The notes beneath the pieces were generated by a model. The model made no database searches and was not told where the DNA came from. It was given only the letters and a program-made list of their open reading frames with translations. 34,917 nt of DNA, taken from a virus. Its lineage: Duplodnaviria > Heunggongvirae > Uroviricota > Caudoviricetes. This document shows positions 1 through 14,907 of this stretch, one piece after another; position 1 is the stretch's first letter, and each line of letters starts with the position of its first letter. Location: positions 1 through 34,917 of the IMG/VR virus record IMGVR_UViG_2541047813_000003. One strand, 5' to 3'. The position numbers were made by a program, and so were the translations under genes.

Positions 1-1143
1 CTATGCTGTTTTGATATCTACGATAATCCAGTCTTTACCACGATCATCATTGTATCGGTCGGTCATTTTTCTGGATTTATGACCTAACAACTTTTGCGTA
101 TCCAGACCCTGTTCCCGATATAACCGTTCTGACAGAGATCGCTGCTCATGAAATGTGGGCGCAGTTCCTGGCTCCCATTTTATGCCACATTTTTCCCTGG
201 CCTTTTTAAAAGCCGTTGTAAGAGTATTTGCAGAAACCTGGTCTCCTCTGTTTGCTTGAGAGGTAGTGTGACGGTAATGGACCAGATATTTACTAACAAC
301 AGCATCCCTGCACTGAGATATAACTTCACGAAGGGTAATATTCAGAGCATCGCATTTCAGGCTAAGCGGAATAGCAAGTTTTGAACCGGTTTTTTCCTGA
401 GTAATGTGCAACATGTCGTCCCATATATCAGAGAATTTCAAATTGCAGATATCGCCTAAACGTTGTCCAGTAACAAGAGCAAGTAGCATGCCGCATTTTA
501 AATAGGGCTGCCGTCTGCTTACGCTTTCAAATATTGCCTGCCATTCGGGCAGTGATAATCTTTGGCGGTTTACTCGATTTCGCGGTTGTTTTGTTGCCTG
601 CGCTGGGTTAAATCCTGGCGGAACATGTCCTGCGTGTTGTGCTTCTTTGAAGACGTCGATCAACACCATTCTCACGACTTGCGCCATCCTGTTATGACCT
701 TCAGCCTTTACAGCATCAATTATTTCGGCAATATCAAGTGCGGTAATATCCTTGAGGTGTTGCATTCCACAATGCTCACGGAAAAGACGAATGGGTTTAC
801 CTTTTTGCCGATAGGAGTTGGGTTTTAGTTCATTATGTTGCAGCCTGTCCTCCTGGATAGAAATATATTTATCAAGCCATTCTGTCACCGTAATGTCTGA
901 ACGCCTGCCTTTCATTCTTTCTAGACGCTCATTGACGCTTAATATTTGTCGGGTACGTTGTTCAGCAATAATGGTATTTGCTTCAGTAGCAACTTGTTTT
1001 GCTTCATTCTCATCAGTTCCTAAGCTATGAAAACGACCGGATAGTGGATGTTTGTATTGCCAATATACCTTTCCGGTTCGCTTATCTAATTTGCAATATA
1101 AATTGGGTATAGAGATTTTGTGAGATCGGGGTCTAGCAGCCAT
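1..1143 (-). CDS. int: Tyrosine site-specific integrase (lambda Int family)
   Basis: 380-aa ORF; ATG at 1143, stop at 1-3; C-terminal catalytic region with the LGHKS...DRY tyrosine-recombinase signature; start overlaps the xis end, as in lambda. Confidence 0.9.
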   Translation of the reverse strand: MAARPRSHKISIPNLYCKLDKRTGKVYWQYKHPLSGRFHSLGTDENEAKQVATEANTIIAEQRTRQILSVNERLERMKGRRSDITVTEWLDKYISIQEDRLQHNELKPNSYRQKGKPIRLFREHCGMQHLKDITALDIAEIIDAVKAEGHNRMAQVVRMVLIDVFKEAQHAGHVPPGFNPAQATKQPRNRVNRQRLSLPEWQAIFESVSRRQPYLKCGMLLALVTGQRLGDICNLKFSDIWDDMLHITQEKTGSKLAIPLSLKCDALNITLREVISQCRDAVVSKYLVHYRHTTSQANRGDQVSANTLTTAFKKAREKCGIKWEPGTAPTFHEQRSLSERLYREQGLDTQKLLGHKSRKMTDRYNDDRGKDWIIVDIKTA

Positions 1144-3249: not shown

Positions 3250-3920
3250 TGCTCCCCAAATACAAAACCAATTTCAGCCAGTGCCTCGTCCATTTTTTCG
3301 ATGAACTCCGGCACCATCTCGTCAAAACTCGCCATGTACTTTTCATCCCGCTCAACCACGACATAATGCAGTCCTTCACGCTTCATACGCGGGTCATAGT
3401 TGGCAAAGTACCAGGCATCTTTTCGCGTCACCCACATGCTGTACTGCACCTGGGCCATGTAAGCTGACTTTATGGCCTCGAAACCACCGAGCCGGAACTT
3501 CATGAAATCCCGGGAGGTAAACGGGCATTTCAGTTCAAGGCCGTTGCCGTCACTGCATAAACCATCTGGAGAGCAGGCGGTACGCATACTTTCGTCGCGA
3601 TAGATGATCGGTGATTCAGTAACATTCACGCCGGAAGTGAACTCAAACAGGGCTCTGGCGTCGTTCTCGTACTGTTTTCCCCAGGCCAGCGCTTTAGCGT
3701 TAACTTCCGGAGCCACACCGGTGCAAACCTCAGCAAGCAGGGTGTGGAAGTAGGACATTTTCATGTCAGGCCACTTTTTTCCGGAGCGGGGTTTTGCTAT
3801 TACGTTATGAACTTCTGAAGCTGTGATGACGCCGAGCCGTAATTTGTGCCACGCATCATCCCCCTGTTCGACAGCTCTCACGTCGATCCCGGTACGCTGC
3901 AGGATAATGTCCGGTGTCAT
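3240..3920 (-). CDS. exo: Lambda exonuclease (Red alpha)
   Basis: 226-aa translation essentially identical to phage lambda Exo as I remember it; overlaps the bet stop. Confidence 0.95.
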
Positions 3921-6782: not shown

Positions 6783-7472
6783 CTACCCATGCTTCCTATA
6801 CGTCTGCGGCATGCTCCCAATAACCTTACCGAAGATGAACACCCGGTTCATCTCGTCTTTCTCGATCGGGTCCCAAGGTGAGTAGCTCTTGTTATCAGAG
6901 ATAACCAGCAGCTTATCCTTCATCATTTGCAGACGCTTTACATGGGCTGTGTCGTCGTACAGAAACGCATAGATACCATCACCGTCGAAAGATTTAACCG
7001 TGATATCAACGAACAGCAGATCACCTGGTTCGATCGTTCCTGACATGCTGTCACCGCGTACGTTAATGATACGGATATTTTCCGCCTTCCTGCCATCGAA
7101 CATGTGACGAGCATCGTCAAACGAATACTCAACCGAACGTAGAACTTCTACAAACTCACGGTTGATGACTCCCGGCCCGGCACTCACTTCGATATCAAGA
7201 ACGTCAATCTTAAAGTATTTGGAATGGCTGACAGTTGTTTGTATTGGTTGCACTGTACTGTCTGACATATTTCCAACGCCAGAAGATAACCATTCTGCGC
7301 GCACACCCAAAGCGTTCGCGATCTCCACGATTTTAGTTGTTTGGTTAGCTTTCCCTGTTTCGATTTTCTGAATAGCTGCTTGGCTAACCCCGACCAAATC
7401 CCCAAGCGCCTTTTGTGTAAGGCCTCGCGCTAATCTGGCTTCTTTAAGTCTTTCTGAGAGTGTTGTTTTCAT
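6783..7472 (-). CDS. Prophage repressor (CI-type; N-terminal HTH plus C-terminal S24 LexA-like peptidase domain)
   Basis: 229 aa from the ATG at 7472: HTH (LTQKALGDLVGVSQAAIQKIE), Ala-Gly cleavage site (EVSAGPG), catalytic Ser (GDSMSGT) and Lys (VKRLQ). No SD before the ATG, and pRM -10 is 6 nt upstream, so the mRNA is probably leaderless as for lambda cI. Confidence 0.85.
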   Translation of the reverse strand: MKTTLSERLKEARLARGLTQKALGDLVGVSQAAIQKIETGKANQTTKIVEIANALGVRAEWLSSGVGNMSDSTVQPIQTTVSHSKYFKIDVLDIEVSAGPGVINREFVEVLRSVEYSFDDARHMFDGRKAENIRIINVRGDSMSGTIEPGDLLFVDITVKSFDGDGIYAFLYDDTAHVKRLQMMKDKLLVISDNKSYSPWDPIEKDEMNRVFIFGKVIGSMPQTYRKHG

Positions 7473-7478
7473 AGTCCA

Positions 7479-7507
7479 AATGTACAACCAAGGTTTTATT
7501 TCATCAA
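7479..7507 (-). promoter_or_regulatory. Predicted repressor maintenance promoter (pRM-like)
   Basis: Minus strand TTGATG (plus 7502-7507), 17-bp spacer, TACATT (plus 7479-7484), ending 6 nt before the cI ATG. Confidence 0.45.
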
Positions 7508-7514
7508 ACGAAAA

Positions 7515-7537
7515 TGGTTGTTGACTAAAAACAACCA
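7515..7537. promoter_or_regulatory. Candidate oR operator palindrome overlapping pR -35
   Basis: TGGTTGTT-GACTAAA-AACAACCA (8-bp perfect inverted arms); an adjacent 10-bp palindrome AACCATGGTT (7532-7541) and AACCAAGGTT (7487-7496) share the same half-site. Confidence 0.45.
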
Positions 7538-7549
7538 TGGTTTTAATCT
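7521..7549 (+). promoter_or_regulatory. Predicted rightward early promoter pR
   Basis: TTGACT (7521-7526), 17-bp spacer, TAATCT (7544-7549); followed by a GGAGG RBS and the cro-like ATG at 7577. Confidence 0.55.
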
Positions 7550-7576
7550 TGATTCAAATTAACCACGGAGGTTGTT

Positions 7577-7807: not shown

Positions 7808-7819
7808 ATTTCCATTTCA

Positions 7820-7833
7820 CGCTCTTTAACAAT
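7820..7833 (+). promoter_or_regulatory. boxA-like element (nutR-position)
   Basis: CGCTCTTTAACAAT just after the cro-like stop; matches the boxA consensus CGCTCTTTA and the rrn-type boxA GCTCTTTAACAAT as I recall them. No convincing boxB hairpin follows. Confidence 0.4.
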
Positions 7834-7876
7834 AAGCAATCAACTTAACAGTCAATTCAAACTAAAGGAGTCAATT

Positions 7877-8416
7877 ATGCAACCACTTACATACCAACAG
7901 ACTAGCGGATTTAGCCCGACTGCGGTGATAAATCGTTCTCAAACAAAACAAGCTCCAGGCCACGAAAAAATCCGTGATGCCGTCCGCGCCTGGTCGGCTG
8001 TAGATAATCAGGATGTCGTTGCCGCACTCATTGTGAATGAGTATCGGGAGCAGGGCGGCGGCACCATCGATTTCCCTGATGATGTCAGCCGTGCACGCCA
8101 GAAGCTGTTCCGCTTCCTCGATAACAAATTCGATTCTGAAAAATACCGAAATAACGTGCGTGAACTGACCCCGGCAATTCTGGCGGTACTACCGCTGGAA
8201 TATCGCGGTTACCTAGTTGAGCAGGATAGCTTCATGGCTCGGCTGGCTGAAATGGAAAAGGAACTCAGTGAGGCAAAGCAGGCGGTCATTCTCAACGCAC
8301 CACGCCACCAGAAACTGAAGGAGATGAGTGAAGGCATTGTGTCGATGTTTCGAGTGGACCCGGATCTGGCTGGTCCACTGATGGCGATGGTCACCACCAT
8401 GCTGGGGGCAATATGA
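7877..8416 (+). CDS. Hypothetical protein in the cII position (possibly YdaT-like)
   Basis: 179-aa ORF with strong RBS (AAAGGAG); contains an EYREQGGG segment reminiscent of YdaT-type proteins that follow Cro-like genes in some E. coli prophages (recollection only). Confidence 0.6.
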   Translation: MQPLTYQQTSGFSPTAVINRSQTKQAPGHEKIRDAVRAWSAVDNQDVVAALIVNEYREQGGGTIDFPDDVSRARQKLFRFLDNKFDSEKYRNNVRELTPAILAVLPLEYRGYLVEQDSFMARLAEMEKELSEAKQAVILNAPRHQKLKEMSEGIVSMFRVDPDLAGPLMAMVTTMLGAI

Positions 8417-8502
8417 CAGGTTCAGAAATGGCGAAAGCCGGTCTGCTGGAACAGAACCGACTTTCAGGTGCAAATCGTAACACACTCATTGCGGGAGGAA
8501 TT

Positions 8503-9432
8503 ATGGCAAACACTGCTGAGATATTCAATTTTCCAGTGCCGGATGCGGCACAAAAGGAGCCGCGCGTGGCAGATCTCGATGATGGTTATACGCGCATTGC
8601 AAATGAGTTGCTGGAAGCTGTGATGCTGGCCGGATTAACACAGCACCAGCTTCTGGTCTTTCTGGCTGTCATGCGCAAAACATATGGCTTTAATAAAAAA
8701 CTGGATTGGGTTAGCAACGAGCAACTTTCCGAATTAACCGGGATATTGCCGCACAAGTGTTCTGCTGCAAAAAGTGTTCTGGTAAAGCGTGGGATTTTTA
8801 TTCAGAGCGGGCGGAATACCGGCATTAATAATGTGGTCAGTGAATGGTCTACATTACCCGAATCAGGTAAGAAAAATAAAGTTTACCTGAAAGAGGTAAA
8901 TTTACCTGAATCAGGTAAAAAAAGTTTACCCAAATCAGGTAAAGGCGTTTACCCGAATCAGGTAAACACAAAAGACAAACTAACAAAAGACAATATAAAA
9001 CCTTTTTCGTCCGAGAATTCTGGCGAATCCTCTGACCAACCAGAAAACGATCTTCCTGTGGTGAAACCGGATGCTGCAATTCAGAGCGGCAGCAAGTGGG
9101 GGACAGCAGAAGACCTGACCGCCGCAGAGTGGATGTTTGACATGGTGAAGACCATCGCGCCATCAGCCAGAAAACCGAATTTTGCAGGGTGGGCTAACGA
9201 TATCCGCCTGATGCGTGAACGTGACGGACGTAACCACCGCGACATGTGCGTGCTGTTCCGCTGGGCATGCCAGGACAACTTCTGGTCCGGTAACGTGCTA
9301 AGTCCGGCCAAACTCCGCGACAAGTGGACCCAACTCGAAATCAACCGTAACAAGCAACAGGCAGGCGTGACAGCTAGCAAACCAAAACTCGACCTGACAA
9401 ACACAGACTGGATTTACGGGGTGGATCTATGA
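8503..9432 (+). CDS. O: Replication initiator protein O (lambda-type)
   Basis: N-terminus MANTAEIFNF...VADLDDGYTRIANELLEA resembles lambda O; ATG at 8503 has a strong GGGAGGA RBS (the ORF track extends upstream to 8413); the C-terminal half is near-identical to lambda O; iterons lie inside the gene. Confidence 0.85.
   Translation: MANTAEIFNFPVPDAAQKEPRVADLDDGYTRIANELLEAVMLAGLTQHQLLVFLAVMRKTYGFNKKLDWVSNEQLSELTGILPHKCSAAKSVLVKRGIFIQSGRNTGINNVVSEWSTLPESGKKNKVYLKEVNLPESGKKSLPKSGKGVYPNQVNTKDKLTKDNIKPFSSENSGESSDQPENDLPVVKPDAAIQSGSKWGTAEDLTAAEWMFDMVKTIAPSARKPNFAGWANDIRLMRERDGRNHRDMCVLFRWACQDNFWSGNVLSPAKLRDKWTQLEINRNKQQAGVTASKPKLDLTNTDWIYGVDL
8853..8966. repeat. Replication origin iterons (ori-lambda-type) inside O
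   Basis: Four to five copies of an about 19-bp unit TTTACCYGAATCAGGTAAA with internal dyad TTACC...GGTAA (8853-8871, degenerate 8881-8900, 8901-8919, 8925-8943, 8948-8966), followed by an A-rich stretch (8967-9010). Confidence 0.8.
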
Positions 9433-10429: not shown

Positions 10430-10496
10430 TGAAACAGGTGAGTTGAGTTCAAACTGTAGTACAATTCTCTCCAGTTTGAACAGGAAAGAATATGCT

Positions 10497-10829
10497 ATGA
10501 ATCCTTATATTTATCTTGGTGGTGCAATACTTGCAGAGGTCATTGGTACAACCTTAATGAAGTTTTCAGAAGGTTTTACACGGTTATGGCCATCTGTTGG
10601 TACAATTATTTGTTATTGTGCATCATTCTGGTTATTAGCTCAGACGCTGGCTTATATTCCTACAGGGATTGCTTATGCTATCTGGTCAGGAGTCGGTATT
10701 GTCCTGATTAGCTTACTATCATGGGGATTTTTCGGCCAACGGTTGGACCTGCCAGCCATTATAGGCATGATGTTGATTTGTGCCGGTGTGTTGGTTATTA
10801 ATTTATTGTCACGAAGCACACCACATTAA
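10497..10829 (+). CDS. emrE: SMR-family multidrug efflux transporter EmrE
   Basis: 110 aa from the ATG at 10497 (MNPYIYLGGAILAEVIGTTLMKFSEGF...), matching E. coli EmrE with conserved Glu14 and four TM segments; the ORF track starts at an upstream TTG. Confidence 0.9.
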   Translation: MNPYIYLGGAILAEVIGTTLMKFSEGFTRLWPSVGTIICYCASFWLLAQTLAYIPTGIAYAIWSGVGIVLISLLSWGFFGQRLDLPAIIGMMLICAGVLVINLLSRSTPH

Positions 10830-11084
10830 AAATAATTTGTTTTTAAACGACTAAAATATGGAGGCTCGTATATTTATATGGGCCTCGTTTTATGCTTTTT
10901 GTTAATGTCTTTAGTTTTTATTCATTCTTTTGTGCTTTCAAGATTATGGTGTAAGAAAATTGCAATGCGATTATTGTTGTATATTCAAGATAATGTGACC
11001 TTAATTGTCTTTTTAAATAAAAATTAAACAAAAATCATATCTCACCACTAAGGTTTATAAAAGCATACTTTAGCAGGTGTCACC

Positions 11085-12611
11085 ATGAAAAAAGCCATAG
11101 CATATATGCGATTTTCATCACCAGGTCAGATGTCTGGTGATTCATTAAACCGCCAGAGAAGGCTTATTACTGAATGGCTAAAGGTAAATAGTGATTATTA
11201 CCTTGATACCGTAACGTATGAAGATTTGGGGTTAAGCGCATTCAATGGAAAGCATGCACAATCAGGAGCTTTTTCGGAATTTTTAGATGCTATAGAACAT
11301 GGTTATATATTGCCAGGGACTACATTGTTAGTTGAAAGTCTGGACAGACTTTCAAGAGAAAAAGTCGGTGAAGCGATTGAGCGTCTGAAATTGATTTTGA
11401 ATCACGGTATTGATGTTATAACTCTTTGCGATAATACAGTCTATAATATTGACTCATTGAATGAGCCATATTCATTAATAAAAGCCATACTTATAGCACA
11501 AAGGGCAAATGAAGAAAGCGAGATAAAGTCAAGTCGGGTTAAATTATCATGGAAGAAAAAACGGCAGGATGCACTGGAGTCAGGCACGATTATGACGGCT
11601 TCTTGTCCGAGATGGCTCTCATTGGATGACAAAAGAACGGCTTTTGTTCCAGACCCCGACAGGGTGAAAACTATTGAGCTAATTTTTAAACTCAGGATGG
11701 AAAGGCGCTCATTGAATGCAATAGCCAAGTATTTAAATGATCATGCTGTAAAGAATTTCTCAGGAAAAGAAAGTGCATGGGGACCTTCTGTAATTGAAAA
11801 ATTATTAGCGAATAAAGCTCTGATAGGTATATGCGTACCTTCATATCGTGCAAGAGGGAAAGGGATAAGTGAAATCGCTGGCTATTATCCCAGAGTCATA
11901 TCAGATGATTTGTTTTACGCTGTACAGGAAATTCGGTTGGCACCTTTTGGTATTAGCAATAGTAGCAAGAATCCTATGCTAATAAATCTACTTCGAACAG
12001 TTATGAAGTGTGAGGCTTGTGGTAATACCATGATTGTTCATGCGGTATCTGGAAGTTTGCATGGCTATTATGTTTGTCCGATGAGAAGATTACATCGATG
12101 TGACAGACCATCAATAAAAAGAGATTTGGTTGATTATAATATCATTAATGAATTGCTTTTTAATTGTAGCAAAATTCAACCAGTTGAAAACAAGAAAGAT
12201 GCTAATGAAACTTTAGAGTTAAAAATTATTGAGCTTCAGATGAAAATTAATAATTTAATCGTTGCATTGTCTGTCGCGCCTGAAGTTACCGCTATAGCAG
12301 AGAAAATAAGACTATTAGATAAGGAATTACGAAGGGCTTCGGTATCATTAAAAACTTTGAAGAGTAAAGGGGTGAGTTCACTTGGTGATTTTCATGCTAT
12401 TGATTTAACCAGTAAAAATGGGCGAGAGCTATGTCGTACACTTGCCTATAAAATATTCGAAAAAATTATAATTAATACAGATAATAAAACCTGTGATATC
12501 TATTTTATGAATGGCATTGTTTTTAAACACTATCCTTTAATGAAAGTAATATCCGCCCAGCAGGCGATAAGTACTCTTAAATATATGGTTGATGGTGAGA
12601 TTTATTTTTGA
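11085..12611 (+). CDS. ybcK: Large serine recombinase (DLP12 YbcK-like)
   Basis: 508 aa; N-terminal resolvase/invertase catalytic domain (AIAYMRFSSPGQ...), recombinase domain, Cys-rich zinc ribbon (CEACGN...CPMRRLHRC) and coiled-coil C-terminal region. AT-rich; same neighbourhood as ybcK in DLP12. Confidence 0.8.
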   Translation: MKKAIAYMRFSSPGQMSGDSLNRQRRLITEWLKVNSDYYLDTVTYEDLGLSAFNGKHAQSGAFSEFLDAIEHGYILPGTTLLVESLDRLSREKVGEAIERLKLILNHGIDVITLCDNTVYNIDSLNEPYSLIKAILIAQRANEESEIKSSRVKLSWKKKRQDALESGTIMTASCPRWLSLDDKRTAFVPDPDRVKTIELIFKLRMERRSLNAIAKYLNDHAVKNFSGKESAWGPSVIEKLLANKALIGICVPSYRARGKGISEIAGYYPRVISDDLFYAVQEIRLAPFGISNSSKNPMLINLLRTVMKCEACGNTMIVHAVSGSLHGYYVCPMRRLHRCDRPSIKRDLVDYNIINELLFNCSKIQPVENKKDANETLELKIIELQMKINNLIVALSVAPEVTAIAEKIRLLDKELRRASVSLKTLKSKGVSSLGDFHAIDLTSKNGRELCRTLAYKIFEKIIINTDNKTCDIYFMNGIVFKHYPLMKVISAQQAISTLKYMVDGEIYF

Positions 12612-12935
12612 GTAATAATCACTTTTTCAACCGTGCTATGGTATGAAAGTAAAGTGACTAATATGATATTAACTATCTTGAACGAAGCGCCCTGAGCTAT
12701 AGTTTTACTATAGGCACTGCCACTGGATGTTGGCATTCTTGCTCTAGTAGCTCAACAATACCCAATCACAAAACAATTCACTGATAACAAACTTTGTGCA
12801 CGTGCTTGGTTATGGCGAACAGGTGATGTTAACCTCTTGCCTGAATGCCACTCCACTTCATTAAGTATCTGAGCACCGAGAGGCTGGTCACGCCCCCATT
12901 AAAAATAATTTCTTTTGAATCGAGTGAAATAGGTT

Positions 12936-12962
12936 AGCCCGCATAAGTGCGGGCTGCTTTTT
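12936..12962 (+). terminator. Intrinsic terminator-like hairpin
   Basis: AGCCCGCA-TAAG-TGCGGGCT followed by GCTTTTT; lies between the convergent recombinase and esterase genes. Confidence 0.45.
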
Positions 12963-13968
12963 ACAGGTCAGCGTTTGTTTTTTGTTGTTGGGTAGCGGTT
13001 TTTATGGGGGTTCCCAGGTTTTTAGTAAACCACTCAACAACTCTGTTTATAATAATTGGCTGATACCATGTATTATCGCCATGCTCAGCCCCTTCTACCA
13101 GAACGTACTCAGCGTTATCGCCGTTCTTCTTCAACATCCTGAATAGTTTGGCGCTTTGCTCAGGTGAAACCAGAGTGTCTTTGCTACCATGCATAATAAG
13201 AAATGGGGGTTTTACTCCTTTCATATGTCCGATTGGACTGGCGTTTAGCGCTTTTTCTTTTGACGCTGTTATGGGGGCTCCCGCAAAACTTCTGAATGCA
13301 GGGCCATTGATCATTAAGGCTTCGGTTACGGCAGGAGATCGATGAACCTCCTGCACTGATTCAGGGAACCCCTCGCCAATATTCAACAAGTCAGAAATCC
13401 CATAAAGTGTGGCAACTGCCTGAACATCTGCTGATTGCTGAAGAAAGTCACCTTTATTAAAGGTTTTGTCACCATTTGTAGTTCCCATCATCTGGGCAAG
13501 CCATCCACCGGCAGAGTCACCCAGAACTCCGATTCTTTGAGGATCAATCCCATAATCGCTGGCATGTTCTCTCAAGTAACGTATTGCAGCTTTCCCATCC
13601 TCAACTGGTGCTGGAAATGTATCAGGAATTGTTCTGTATTCTACAGCGGCCACAACAAAACCAGCTTCAGCCAGAGCCATTCTCATTTCAATAAATTTGT
13701 CATGTTCAGAAGACATGAATCCGCCGCCGGGATAATAAATAATGGCTGGTTTTAAATCATTTGTTCGCGGGACAAGAACTGACATGTGAAGCTGTCTGAC
13801 AGAACGAGTTCCTTTTATCTGGGAATAAACAACATCACCAATGAGATCGACCTGGTTTCTGGTGGGTGAAACACTAATGATATCTGCACCCGGGGTGTAA
13901 CCAGGAAAATTAGTCTGGACAGGTGTTGCACAACTCCCGACCGACATGGCCATTGACATACCATACAA
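12961..13968 (-). CDS. Alpha/beta-hydrolase fold esterase/lipase (HGGG-type)
   Basis: 335-aa ORF with oxyanion-hole motif YYPGGGF, nucleophile elbow GDSAGG and a C-terminal His (AEHGDN); N-terminus ambiguous (see findings). Confidence 0.8.
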   Translation of the reverse strand: MYGMSMAMSVGSCATPVQTNFPGYTPGADIISVSPTRNQVDLIGDVVYSQIKGTRSVRQLHMSVLVPRTNDLKPAIIYYPGGGFMSSEHDKFIEMRMALAEAGFVVAAVEYRTIPDTFPAPVEDGKAAIRYLREHASDYGIDPQRIGVLGDSAGGWLAQMMGTTNGDKTFNKGDFLQQSADVQAVATLYGISDLLNIGEGFPESVQEVHRSPAVTEALMINGPAFRSFAGAPITASKEKALNASPIGHMKGVKPPFLIMHGSKDTLVSPEQSAKLFRMLKKNGDNAEYVLVEGAEHGDNTWYQPIIINRVVEWFTKNLGTPIKTATQQQKTNADL

Positions 13969-14353
13969 TAGTGTTGCAGATGATAATATCTTGTTAATTT
14001 TTATGTTTTACATGCCTTGACTTATCGGATGAAATTCTCTTACTGAATTTAACGGCAGTTTAATAGCAGTACAACTCGTGGTAGCTAGGGAAATATCCCA
14101 GTCGTGGTTAAGGTTGTACTTGACGGCTATTATTTCAACAATGCTTAAAGTGAGAGCTTAAGGTTATGCGTATGTTTTACAGTCCGAGTAGATTCTGACC
14201 AATAGCTTCTTTGTATAATTCTGTCAGAAATAAATCTTGGCTTGCATGAAGTTTGAGACCTTATCTTGTTTGATTATGAATAATCAATTCGCCATAATTG
14301 TATCACCGGAGCCTGAACAACTCCTGTGACTTCTGCGCTAAACGGGGACGTTT

Positions 14354-14455
14354 ATGCGCACATACAATCCAACCTATCTTCTCCATTCACAGATGCAGAA
14401 ATGCACCTGCGATTTTTTGCATCCAGCGTTTGGCCTCTGCGGAGGTGAATCGTGA
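14354..14455 (+). CDS. Small ORF (33 aa), possibly YlcH-like
   Basis: ATG at 14354; [33 protein letters not shown]; stop overlaps the GTG start of the next gene; recollection of a 33-aa ylcH at this position in DLP12. Confidence 0.3.
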
Positions 14456-14907
14456 ACCTCCCACAAGATGGCATCAAATTGCATCGCGGCAACTTCACCG
14501 CTTTCGGCCAGCAGATCCAGCCTTATCTGGAGGACGGAAAATGCTTTCGCATGGTGCTTAAACCGTGGCGTGAGAAACGCAGTCTTTCCCAGAATGCACT
14601 CAGCCATATGTGGTACAGCGAAATCAGTGAATACCTCATCAGCAGGGGGAAATCGTTCGCTACCGCAGCATGGGTAAAAGATGCTCTCAAACACACATAC
14701 CTCGGTTATGAAACCAAGGACCTGGTTGATGTCGTAACCGGCGAAATCACTACTATCCAGTCGTTACGCCATACCTCCGATCTTGATACCGGAGAGATGT
14801 ATGTCTTCCTGTGTAAGGTTGAAGCCTGGGCGATGAATATTGGCTGCCACCTGACTATTCCGCAGCGCTGCGAGTTCCAGCTGCTGCGCGACAAGCAGGA
14901 GGCGTAA
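14452..14907 (+). CDS. NinB/Orf-family recombination protein (YbcN-like)
   Basis: 151 aa, GTG start with GGAGGTG RBS; position and size match DLP12 YbcN, a lambda Orf(NinB) homolog; followed by ninE. Confidence 0.75.

Follow-up and report, generated by a model that had tools for sequence, protein, structure and literature searches.

Which protein does a lambdoid prophage produce from the position in which phage lambda carries cII, and on which sites would this protein act? The locus addressed here is located in IMG/VR virus record IMGVR_UViG_2541047813_000003 (Caudoviricetes), whose positions 1 to 34,917 form the window, i.e., the whole stretch of DNA of 34,917 nucleotides (nt) that was analysed. 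An earlier note, made from the letters alone, had pointed to an open reading frame (ORF) of 179 amino acids (aa) in the cII position, between a cro-like gene with a following boxA-like element and the replication gene O, and had described its product as unassigned and as devoid of an obvious helix-turn-helix (HTH) motif. The ORF with its strong ribosome-binding site and its position relative to cro, boxA and O hold (Table 1), and gene callers agree on the 179-aa product across thousands of sequences (clusters P0002 and P0004). The product, referred to as the CII-like protein in the following, is very probably a CII of the type known from phage phi80, which belongs to the YdaT family and acts as a CII-like regulator. 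Boxes of the type bound by YdaT proteins are present and conserved both within its own gene and 6.4 kb downstream, upstream of ninB.

Family, fold and relatives of the CII-like protein

The protein matches the Pfam family PF06254 (YdaT_toxin, E 1.4e-29, 102.8 bits at a cut-off of 21) over residues 67-154 and PHROG 163 ('CII-like transcriptional activator', E 5e-67) over residues 17-179; NCBIfam has no family model for it. By tblastn, 16 isolated coliphages, among them 4A7, Lambda_4C10, D2, 1W, 3W, Perceval and the PhiR series, encode proteins that are 96-99% identical to it, from genes annotated as 'CII-like', cII or 'activator protein cII'. Lower identities are found for the cII-like proteins of CobraSix (74%), phi80 and mEp237 (67%), as well as HK639 and HK225 (52-53%), and the similarity to phi80 cII extends over 100% of the length, with the N-terminal extension and the C-terminal helices included. 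The cro-cII module is present in 2223 of 5426 complete E. coli genomes, and the RefSeq name of the gene in E. coli genomes is 'toxin YdaT domain-containing protein'. The gene is therefore neither unassigned nor novel: it encodes a very common regulator that is already named in Pfam, PHROG and GenBank phage records.

The structural evidence agrees with the profile matches. A search of the PDB with phmmer returns two real matches only, CP-933P YdaT (8bt1, E 5e-4) and 3c4r (E 1e-3). An AlphaFold model, built on 43 family members, has a mean predicted local distance difference test (pLDDT) score of 80; residues 1-24 are disordered and the remainder is all-helical. The comparison of this model with the PDB by Foldseek, a check proposed in the earlier note, yields chains of 8bt1 and 3c4r as the top six matches (probability 1.00, target-normalised template modelling score 0.67-0.69) and no other match above a probability of 0.54 (0.3 for the match next in rank), so that only YdaT structures match confidently. 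The predicted model does contain an HTH, albeit an atypical one, formed by helices 45-58 and 70-82 with an 11-residue loop between them. A long loop within the HTH is a structural hallmark of the YdaT family (PMC9986795), and the unusual length of the loop, 10-11 residues, accounts for the impression that no such motif is present. The recognition helix reads QKLFRFLD, as compared to QKIFRWLD in CP-933P YdaT, and its residue R79, conserved in at least 90% of the 43 family members, aligns with the recognition-helix arginines R60 of CP-933P YdaT and R57 of Rac YdaT. The latter are the only recognition-helix residue that is conserved family-wide, and they are needed for DNA binding (PMC9986795, PMC11879457). 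A long helix of 20 residues (predicted at residues 119-138) follows within the structural alignment to the YdaT structures; in the YdaT family a long helix of this kind builds the antiparallel four-helix bundle of the tetramer.

The likeness to YdaT that the earlier note had seen in the segment EYREQGGG is borne out by the PF06254 match and by the fold. The stretch NEYREQGGG covers residues 53-61, at the end of helix 2 and the beginning of the HTH loop, and Rac YdaT reads 'EEYLRQGGGE' where the CII-like protein reads 'NEYREQGGGT'. The earlier note's remark that YdaT-type proteins follow Cro-like genes proved equally sound, as the upstream gene product matches PF15943 (YdaS_toxin), besides weaker matches to P22_Cro and HTH_3 in Pfam. 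Conservation within the phi80-type protein is highest in a pair of C-terminal helices (residues 143-179, positions 8303-8413, APxHQKLKExSEGI...GPLMxMVTSMLG; the helices lie within residues 143-177) with a hydrophobic tail at its end, which is absent from the solved 141-aa YdaT; a proteolysis signal, a contact to RNA polymerase or oligomerisation are possible roles.

YdaT proteins of two prophages, CP-933P and Rac, have been characterised. In CP-933P, YdaS corresponds in function to Cro and YdaT to CII; the two are not a toxin-antitoxin (TA) pair, and YdaT turns on a leftward promoter that is silent without it (PMC8630535). The CP-933P protein forms a 222-symmetric tetramer with a footprint on TTGATT-N6-AATCAA; the tetramer has room for two operator duplexes, but only one strong site was found in that defective prophage, and looping was left open (PMC9986795). 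The footprint of Rac YdaT, on ATGATTCATGAAAATCAA, lies over the start codon of its own gene; the protein raises leftward transcription of racR 29-fold and cross-recognises the CP-933P box (PMC11879457). Both proteins activate the leftward promoter of the repressor operon and bind (A/T)TGATT-N6-AATCAA, and the published work shows that YdaT proteins take the functional place of lambda CII and are not toxins (PMC8630535, PMC9986795, PMC11879457).

The database names suggest a different function, namely that of a toxin of a YdaS/YdaT TA pair, poisoning the host rather than regulating the phage. Pfam lists the two families as 'Bacterial toxin ydaT' and 'Bacterial toxin YdaS', the RefSeq name given above is of the same kind, and Rac YdaT is toxic when over-expressed (PMC11879457). 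However, the toxic effect has been traced to the host rcsA promoter, which Rac YdaT activates (PMC11879457), CP-933P YdaT is non-toxic, and YdaS and YdaT do not constitute a TA pair (PMC8630535, PMC5917428). The fold is that of a DNA-binding tetramer with a POU-like HTH (Foldseek on the model; PMC9986795), the gene is situated within an intact lambdoid immunity and replication region, and its closest classical relative is phi80 cII. A toxin is accordingly a highly improbable assignment. According to the earlier note, YdaT-type proteins have been discussed as 'toxic or regulatory': the regulatory half of this statement is supported by the phi80 relative, PHROG 163 and the YdaT literature, whereas published work argues against the toxic half.

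The gene position, and the annotation 'cII' in many records, might also indicate a diverged member of the lambda CII family that acts on TTGC-N6-TTGC direct repeats. The CII-like protein indeed shares with lambda CII the gene position, the presumed role of an early protein that establishes repressor synthesis and an antisense oop-type RNA after the gene, and in both cases the control site appears to lie in the 5' coding region of the gene itself. Yet there is no detectable sequence relationship between the two proteins: no match of Pfam or another profile to lambda-type CII is found at E <= 0.01, and the predicted structure matches YdaT only. Lambda CII has 97 aa, forms an unusual dimer of dimers and recognises the direct repeats, whereas the 222-symmetric YdaT tetramer suits inverted and not direct repeats (PMC9986795). 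The single TTGC-N6-TTGC in the window (positions 3723-3736; 2.9 expected by chance) is located far from the gene. As far as sequence and fold can tell, membership in the lambda CII family is refuted; judged on these grounds the protein is not a homologue of lambda CII, and the probability of the opposite is negligible.

Among the known systems, phi80 is the closest. Its cII (NC_021190 gp48; X13065), a name that stems from classical genetics and is carried in GenBank records, encodes 179-180 aa with the same N-terminal extension and C-terminal helices, is located between the cro-like gene 30 and the O-like gene 15, and is followed by the oop-like M3 RNA. The phages differ in the flanking cI and cro alleles, in the cro-cII spacer (a GC hairpin in phi80, boxA in the window) and in the sequence of the antisense-RNA hairpin. 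CP-933P YdaT (8bt1) and 3c4r have in common with the CII-like protein the fold, the recognition arginine and the long helix after the DNA-binding domain, and the CP-933P gene likewise directly follows a YdaS-type cro; CP-933P YdaT differs in its sequence (about 27% identity), its length of 141 aa without N-terminal extension and its disordered C-terminus, and its box overlaps the start codon, whereas the first box of the window lies inside the coding sequence. Rac YdaT (E. coli K-12 b1358; 140 aa) is 35% identical over the DNA-binding domain, the 'EYxxQGGG' stretch included; for Rac YdaT, binding to the racR-ydaS intergenic region and to the host rcsA promoter has been reported in addition, as has toxicity upon over-expression (PMC11879457).

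Two points weigh against the assignment as a CII-like regulator with YdaT-type operators. Compared to the characterised short YdaT proteins, the phi80-type protein has an N-terminal extension of 24 residues and the conserved C-terminal helix pair of about 40 residues, and the DNA specificity ascribed to it would be that of homologues with 27-35% identity.

A candidate operator and a possible leftward promoter inside the gene

An element resembling the YdaT box is found at gene positions 49-66 in every relative (GTGATAaatcgtTCTCAA in the window, ATGATAaatcgcAATCAA in mEp237 and ATGATAaaccgcGCTCAA in phi80, at the same codons), and its core matches the footprinted Rac box ATGATT-N6-AATCAA (PMC11879457). 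Conservation was evaluated on a codon alignment of 69 loci across Enterobacteriaceae, reduced to 45 representatives with less than 92% nt identity. The gene positions T50, G51, A52, T53, T63 and C64 are invariant in all 45 representatives. The isoleucine codon of the box is the rare ATA in 40 of 45; of the five isoleucine columns elsewhere in the gene, one uses ATA in 16 of 45 sequences and the remaining four in 0-3. Codon 21 ends in T in all 45, despite an amino acid that varies between N, A, S, Y and others, and all three alignment columns in which the third base is fixed while the amino acid changes are located within the first 21 of 177 (P about 0.0015). As the N-terminus specified by codons 1-22 is predicted to be disordered, a constraint on the DNA is the simplest explanation.

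A second argument derives from recombination. Phage 4A7 carries a 98% identical cII with sequence upstream of the ATG that is unrelated and replaces the boxA-containing cro-cII spacer, together with a different cro and cI, and the recombination joint is located exactly at the ATG. Any control site transferred together with the gene must hence be located inside it. In view of its match to the footprinted boxes, we regard the intragenic box as the probable operator of the CII-like protein.

The box is accompanied on the minus strand by a candidate -10 element of a leftward promoter comparable to lambda PRE. Each of the 41 ungapped representatives reads TAnnnT there, with gene positions 23, 27 and 28 that never change even though the encoded amino acids do; a -35 consensus is absent. 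A candidate -10 element without a -35 element has the look of an activator-dependent promoter whose -35 region would be overlapped by the operator, and the start of such a PRE analogue may be situated near positions 7885-7895. We hold the existence of a leftward promoter adjoining the box to be conceivable, with slightly more doubt than confidence.

In Rac (E. coli K-12, locus L006, 2652-2657) the minus strand carries TATGAT, which agrees with the -10 consensus at five of six positions, exactly 20 nt left of the footprinted box at the 5' end of the gene and hence at the same offset as TAnnnT in the window. In Rac, too, a YdaT-dependent leftward start might adjoin the box, and the published PracR4 need not be the only one. 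An arrangement of box, 20 nt and minus-strand -10 element was considered as a general layout of the YdaT family and rejected, as CP-933P-type loci do not fit; the idea is restricted to phi80-type phages.

Several observations speak against an operator with an adjoining promoter. The intragenic box of the window deviates from the ideal palindrome TTGAT-N8-ATCAA at two of ten positions, the promoter activated in the Rac study (PracR4) is located about 190 bp from the box (PMC11879457), and the geometry of box, 20 nt and TAnnnT that is present in Rac is absent in CP-933P-type loci (TTAACG, CTACAA). The conservation of codons 1-22 could also reflect a signal in the mRNA or for translation, such as control of translation initiation, a pause at the rare ATA codon, an RNase site or the target of an antisense or small RNA, instead of an operator and promoter. 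Such an RNA-level signal would agree with a conserved stretch that starts at the start codon (ATGCA..CACTT) and includes the rare ATA, with the fact that any leftward antisense transcript would cover the region, and with a -10-like geometry that is not general in the family. It does not account for the invariant bases TGAT-N8-(A/C)TCA being the core of the footprinted Rac and CP-933P boxes at the equivalent 5' end of ydaT (PMC11879457, PMC9986795), nor for the perfect palindrome in some relatives (L042, ENT1), which has no obvious meaning for a single-stranded signal. We consider the RNA-level signal unlikely and continue to favour an operator at the intragenic box.

Relaxed searches of the window yield box-like matches at chance level (TGATW-N8-TCA: 4 versus 2.7 expected; TTGAT-N8-ATCAA with two mismatches: 22 versus 20.5 expected). 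Weaker copies were not called, as relaxed matches are indistinguishable from chance. This applies to TTGATTcaaattAACCAC at 7549-7566 in the cI-cro spacer, which has a perfect left half-site, and to a copy in the cro-cII spacer at 7826-7843. Rac YdaT also binds imperfect sites in the spacer that corresponds to cI-cro (PMC11879457). No pI-like site near int was found in the relaxed searches of the window.

A second box upstream of ninB

The second box is a perfect match to the published CP-933P operator: all 12 specified bases agree with the consensus determined experimentally for two YdaT proteins. The motif CCATAAT follows 4 nt after the box, such that the box covers the -35 element and the spacer of a sigma-70-like promoter, downstream of which a structured leader precedes ninB. 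The window, phi80 and HK639 each contain a single copy of the strict motif TTGAT-N8-ATCAA, located at this place in all three (0.00-0.05 expected per genome), and mEp237 and ENT1 have versions with one mismatch beside the same leader hairpin. In phi80 the palindromic box TTGATA-N6-TATCAA is located 4 nt before CCATAAT, upstream of a YbcN-family gene. The distance between the two boxes is 3.0 kb in phi80 and longer in the window because of the emrE, recombinase and esterase genes inserted there.

An alignment with phage 82, HK639, CobraSix, HK225, KO-TP1 and phi80 reveals TTTGAT(T/A)-N6-(A/T)ATCAA-N4-(C/G)CATAAT as invariant, with a free spacer. The half-sites do not vary across more than 20 spacer variants, and the homology between the phages begins exactly at the box, the left flanks being unrelated. 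Record X92588 of phage 82 already lists these hexamers as putative -35 and -10 elements and labels the downstream hairpin 'possible regulator-binding site'. This hairpin is the first of the leader; it has the invariant loop GCCUGAACAAC, which is retained even in phages with lambda-type cII. The leader also contains a second hairpin ('IR4' of phi80) and a third stem, followed by a U run. Rfam returns nothing credible in the cro-cII-O region or in the nin leader, and neither the antisense unit described below nor the leader is a curated RNA family.

Co-occurrence of the box with the YdaT-type gene was examined in three ways. In comparisons of deeply diverged phages the box is present in seven of seven with YdaT-type cII and in none of two with lambda-type cII; the latter, phiES15 and ST11-VIM1phi8.1, keep the leader hairpin and have neither the box nor a YdaT-family gene. 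Among 80 near-identical E. coli nin modules the box accompanies YdaT-type cII in 36 of 45 loci, most of the others having degenerate boxes. In Klebsiella and Enterobacter loci with a YbcN-type ninB, 27 of 37 loci that carry YdaT-type cII have the box, as compared to one of 28 that carry lambda-type cII (Fisher 6e-9).

Not all counts point in this direction, and three observations weigh against a role as a CII site. In the same set of E. coli modules a perfect box is also present in three of five loci with lambda-type cII, i.e., the box travels with the module. The association in Klebsiella and Enterobacter loses its significance when upstream regions are clustered at 90% identity (17 of 28 versus 1 of 6 clusters, p = 0.078). 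Finally, the same promoter and leader give inadequate expression of rusA in DLP12 (PMC4118853), so that any regulation at this box could be of either sign. In DLP12 of K-12, which has lost cII, an orphan box is retained upstream of ylcH-ybcN.

The palindrome might hence belong to the promoter module of the ninB leader, with a left half that is merely the -35 element, or serve another regulator, its match to the YdaT consensus being coincidental. The left half does double as the -35 hexamer, the box is carried along with the nin module into prophages with lambda-type cII and into the cII-less DLP12, and the de-replicated association is not significant. On the other hand, the right half (A/T)ATCAA falls in the promoter spacer and plays no part in the promoter, yet does not vary, in contrast to the unconstrained 6 nt that separate the halves; all 12 specified bases fit an experimental consensus, and the site is the only one of its kind in each of three genomes; and deep relatives with lambda-type cII (phiES15, ST11-VIM1phi8.1) as well as 27 of the 28 Klebsiella loci keep the leader hairpin without the box. 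A site unrelated to CII is a serious contender that we consider somewhat improbable, and we judge it an even matter whether the CII-like protein binds the second box. The proposed link is carried mainly by the identity with an experimentally defined operator and by the pattern of half-sites and spacer, whereas the co-occurrence is suggestive. The geometry suggests repression, or a site for a roadblock or looping. The searched literature contains no paper that links YdaT or CII with ninB or ylcH, or that mentions such a site.

Genomic context and proposed mechanism

The coordinates of all features are listed in Table 1. The CII-like gene is situated directly 3' of the YdaS/Cro-type gene, opposite the repressor gene and upstream of the replication genes (gene order cI-like, cro-like, cII-like, then O, P and ren), which is the context of YdaT-family genes. 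Other genes of this lambdoid prophage are int, exo/bet/gam, kil, emrE, a serine recombinase gene, ninB, rusA and Q. The CI-like repressor gene is the presumed target of leftward transcription activated by CII.

Table 1. Positions of the genes, candidate control sites and RNA elements discussed in the text (coordinates refer to the window unless residues are given).
Feature	Position	Strand	Remarks
CI-like repressor gene, HTH and S24 peptidase	6783-7538	-	Pfam and PHROG profiles
Cro-like gene (YdaS family), 76 aa	7577-7807	+	upstream partner; PF15943 YdaS_toxin, E 4e-17; phrog_35
boxA-like element CGCTCTTTAACAA in the cro-cII spacer	7820-7832	+	context only
Shine-Dalgarno element AAGGAG of the cII-like gene	7865-7870	+	6 nt before the ATG; read from the sequence
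cII-like gene, phi80-type CII (YdaT family)	7877-8416	+	179-aa ORF, ATG start
POU-like HTH domain of the CII-like protein	residues about 29-113		predicted structure; recognition helix 70-82, with R79
Candidate -10 element TAGTCT, leftward PRE-like promoter	7899-7904	-	20 nt from the intragenic box
Intragenic YdaT-type box GTGATAAATCGTTCTCAA, candidate CII operator	7925-7942		gene nt 49-66, codons 17-22
oop/M3-like antisense unit	8417-8528	-	promoter, stem-loop, U-rich tail
U-rich tail of the antisense unit	about 8421-8431	-	ends beside the cII stop codon
Antisense stem-loop, 15 pairs	about 8432-8466	-	fold -27.5 kcal/mol, z -3.6
Antisense promoter TTGAAT-17-CATAAT, TG before -10	8528-8500	-	promoter scan; -10 overlaps the O start codon
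Second YdaT-type box TTGATTATGAATAATCAA (TTGATT-ATGAAT-AATCAA)	14270-14287		perfect match to published TTGATT-N6-AATCAA
Sigma-70-like rightward promoter	14270-14298	+	-35 TTGATT is the box left half; 17-nt spacer; -10 CATAAT (14293-14298)
Conserved structured leader, about 150 nt	14299-14451	+	promoter to ninB; 9 pairs with compensatory changes
ninB	14452-14907		downstream of the leader

Two other starts of the reading frame were considered. Codon 17, GTG in the window and ATG in many relatives, was discarded as a start because it is CTG in 11 of the 45 representatives, whereas codon 1 is ATG or GTG in all of them. The 132-aa cII of the old phi80 record X13065 would truncate the first helix of the conserved domain.

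The cro-cII spacer (7808-7876) is a recombination joint, as seen by comparison with locus L001 (3971-4000). In the window it contains the boxA-like element and no obvious boxB hairpin, whereas 4A7, phi80, HK639 and CobraSix have a GCCGCC-taac-GGCGGC hairpin at the end of cro instead. The segment between ren and the nin region (10443-13968) contains inserts as in DLP12, namely an emrE-like small multidrug resistance (SMR) transporter, a 508-aa serine recombinase (YbcK-like) and an esterase-family gene, and the prophage looks like an intact cousin of the cryptic DLP12.

The gap of 87 nt between the cII stop and the preferred start of O had been reported correctly. The ATG of O at 8503 is preceded by a strong Shine-Dalgarno element of its own, GGGAGGA, and all O-family profiles align from residue 31 of a longer frame that begins at 8413, i.e., from this ATG. 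The longer frame overlaps the cII stop (ATGA), and several phage records place the start of O there; it is probably an artefact of ORF calling, and its first 30 codons are probably untranslated. An oop/M3-like antisense unit located in the gap explains the spacing. Four of the 15 stem pairs are compensatory among four phages, and phi80 and HK639 have an annotated M3 (oop-like) RNA at the equivalent place with the same promoter hexamers.

Taken together, the following course of events is proposed. After infection, the CII-like gene would be transcribed rightward from pR, behind the Cro-like gene, and its product would bind inverted repeats of the TTGAT-N8-ATCAA type. In analogy to lambda CII, the protein would push the phage toward lysogeny by activating leftward transcription into the CI-like repressor gene, from an operator and a weak -10-like element within the first 22 codons of its own gene, which would thereby carry its control site along when recombination places it beside other alleles of cro and cI. 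The gene is directly followed by the unit for a small antisense RNA. The second, perfect operator would be situated over the -35 element and the spacer of the promoter that precedes the ninB-to-Q region.

The 222-symmetric YdaT tetramer accommodates two operator duplexes, and the presence of two sites in an intact phage could therefore allow the replication segment O-P-ren to be looped out. A conserved two-operator layout of phi80-type CII, with a box in its own gene and a distant box in the nin region that serves looping of this segment, direct shut-off of the nin/Q promoter, or both, is a speculative and rather unlikely extension. Lambda CII delays Q through the antisense promoter paQ, to which a box over the promoter of the ninB leader would be at most a functional analogue. 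If true, direct shut-off of the nin/Q promoter by CII would represent a protein-based counterpart of the antisense control of late genes by CII-activated paQ in lambda.

The gene itself means little as a discovery, and the comparative by-products are of modest interest to phage biologists. The label 'toxin YdaT' of RefSeq and Pfam is misleading, and 'CII-like' fits the evidence. For phi80-type phages, the intragenic elements provide a testable location of the establishment promoter and its operator, none of which is annotated in the phi80 record, and a control site of its own would explain that the gene stays functional beside unrelated cro and cI alleles. The second conserved operator in the nin region bears on the role of the second DNA-binding face of the YdaT tetramer. 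Likewise, an incoming phi80-type phage or a resident YdaT protein could act on the orphan operator that DLP12 retains upstream of ylcH-ybcN.

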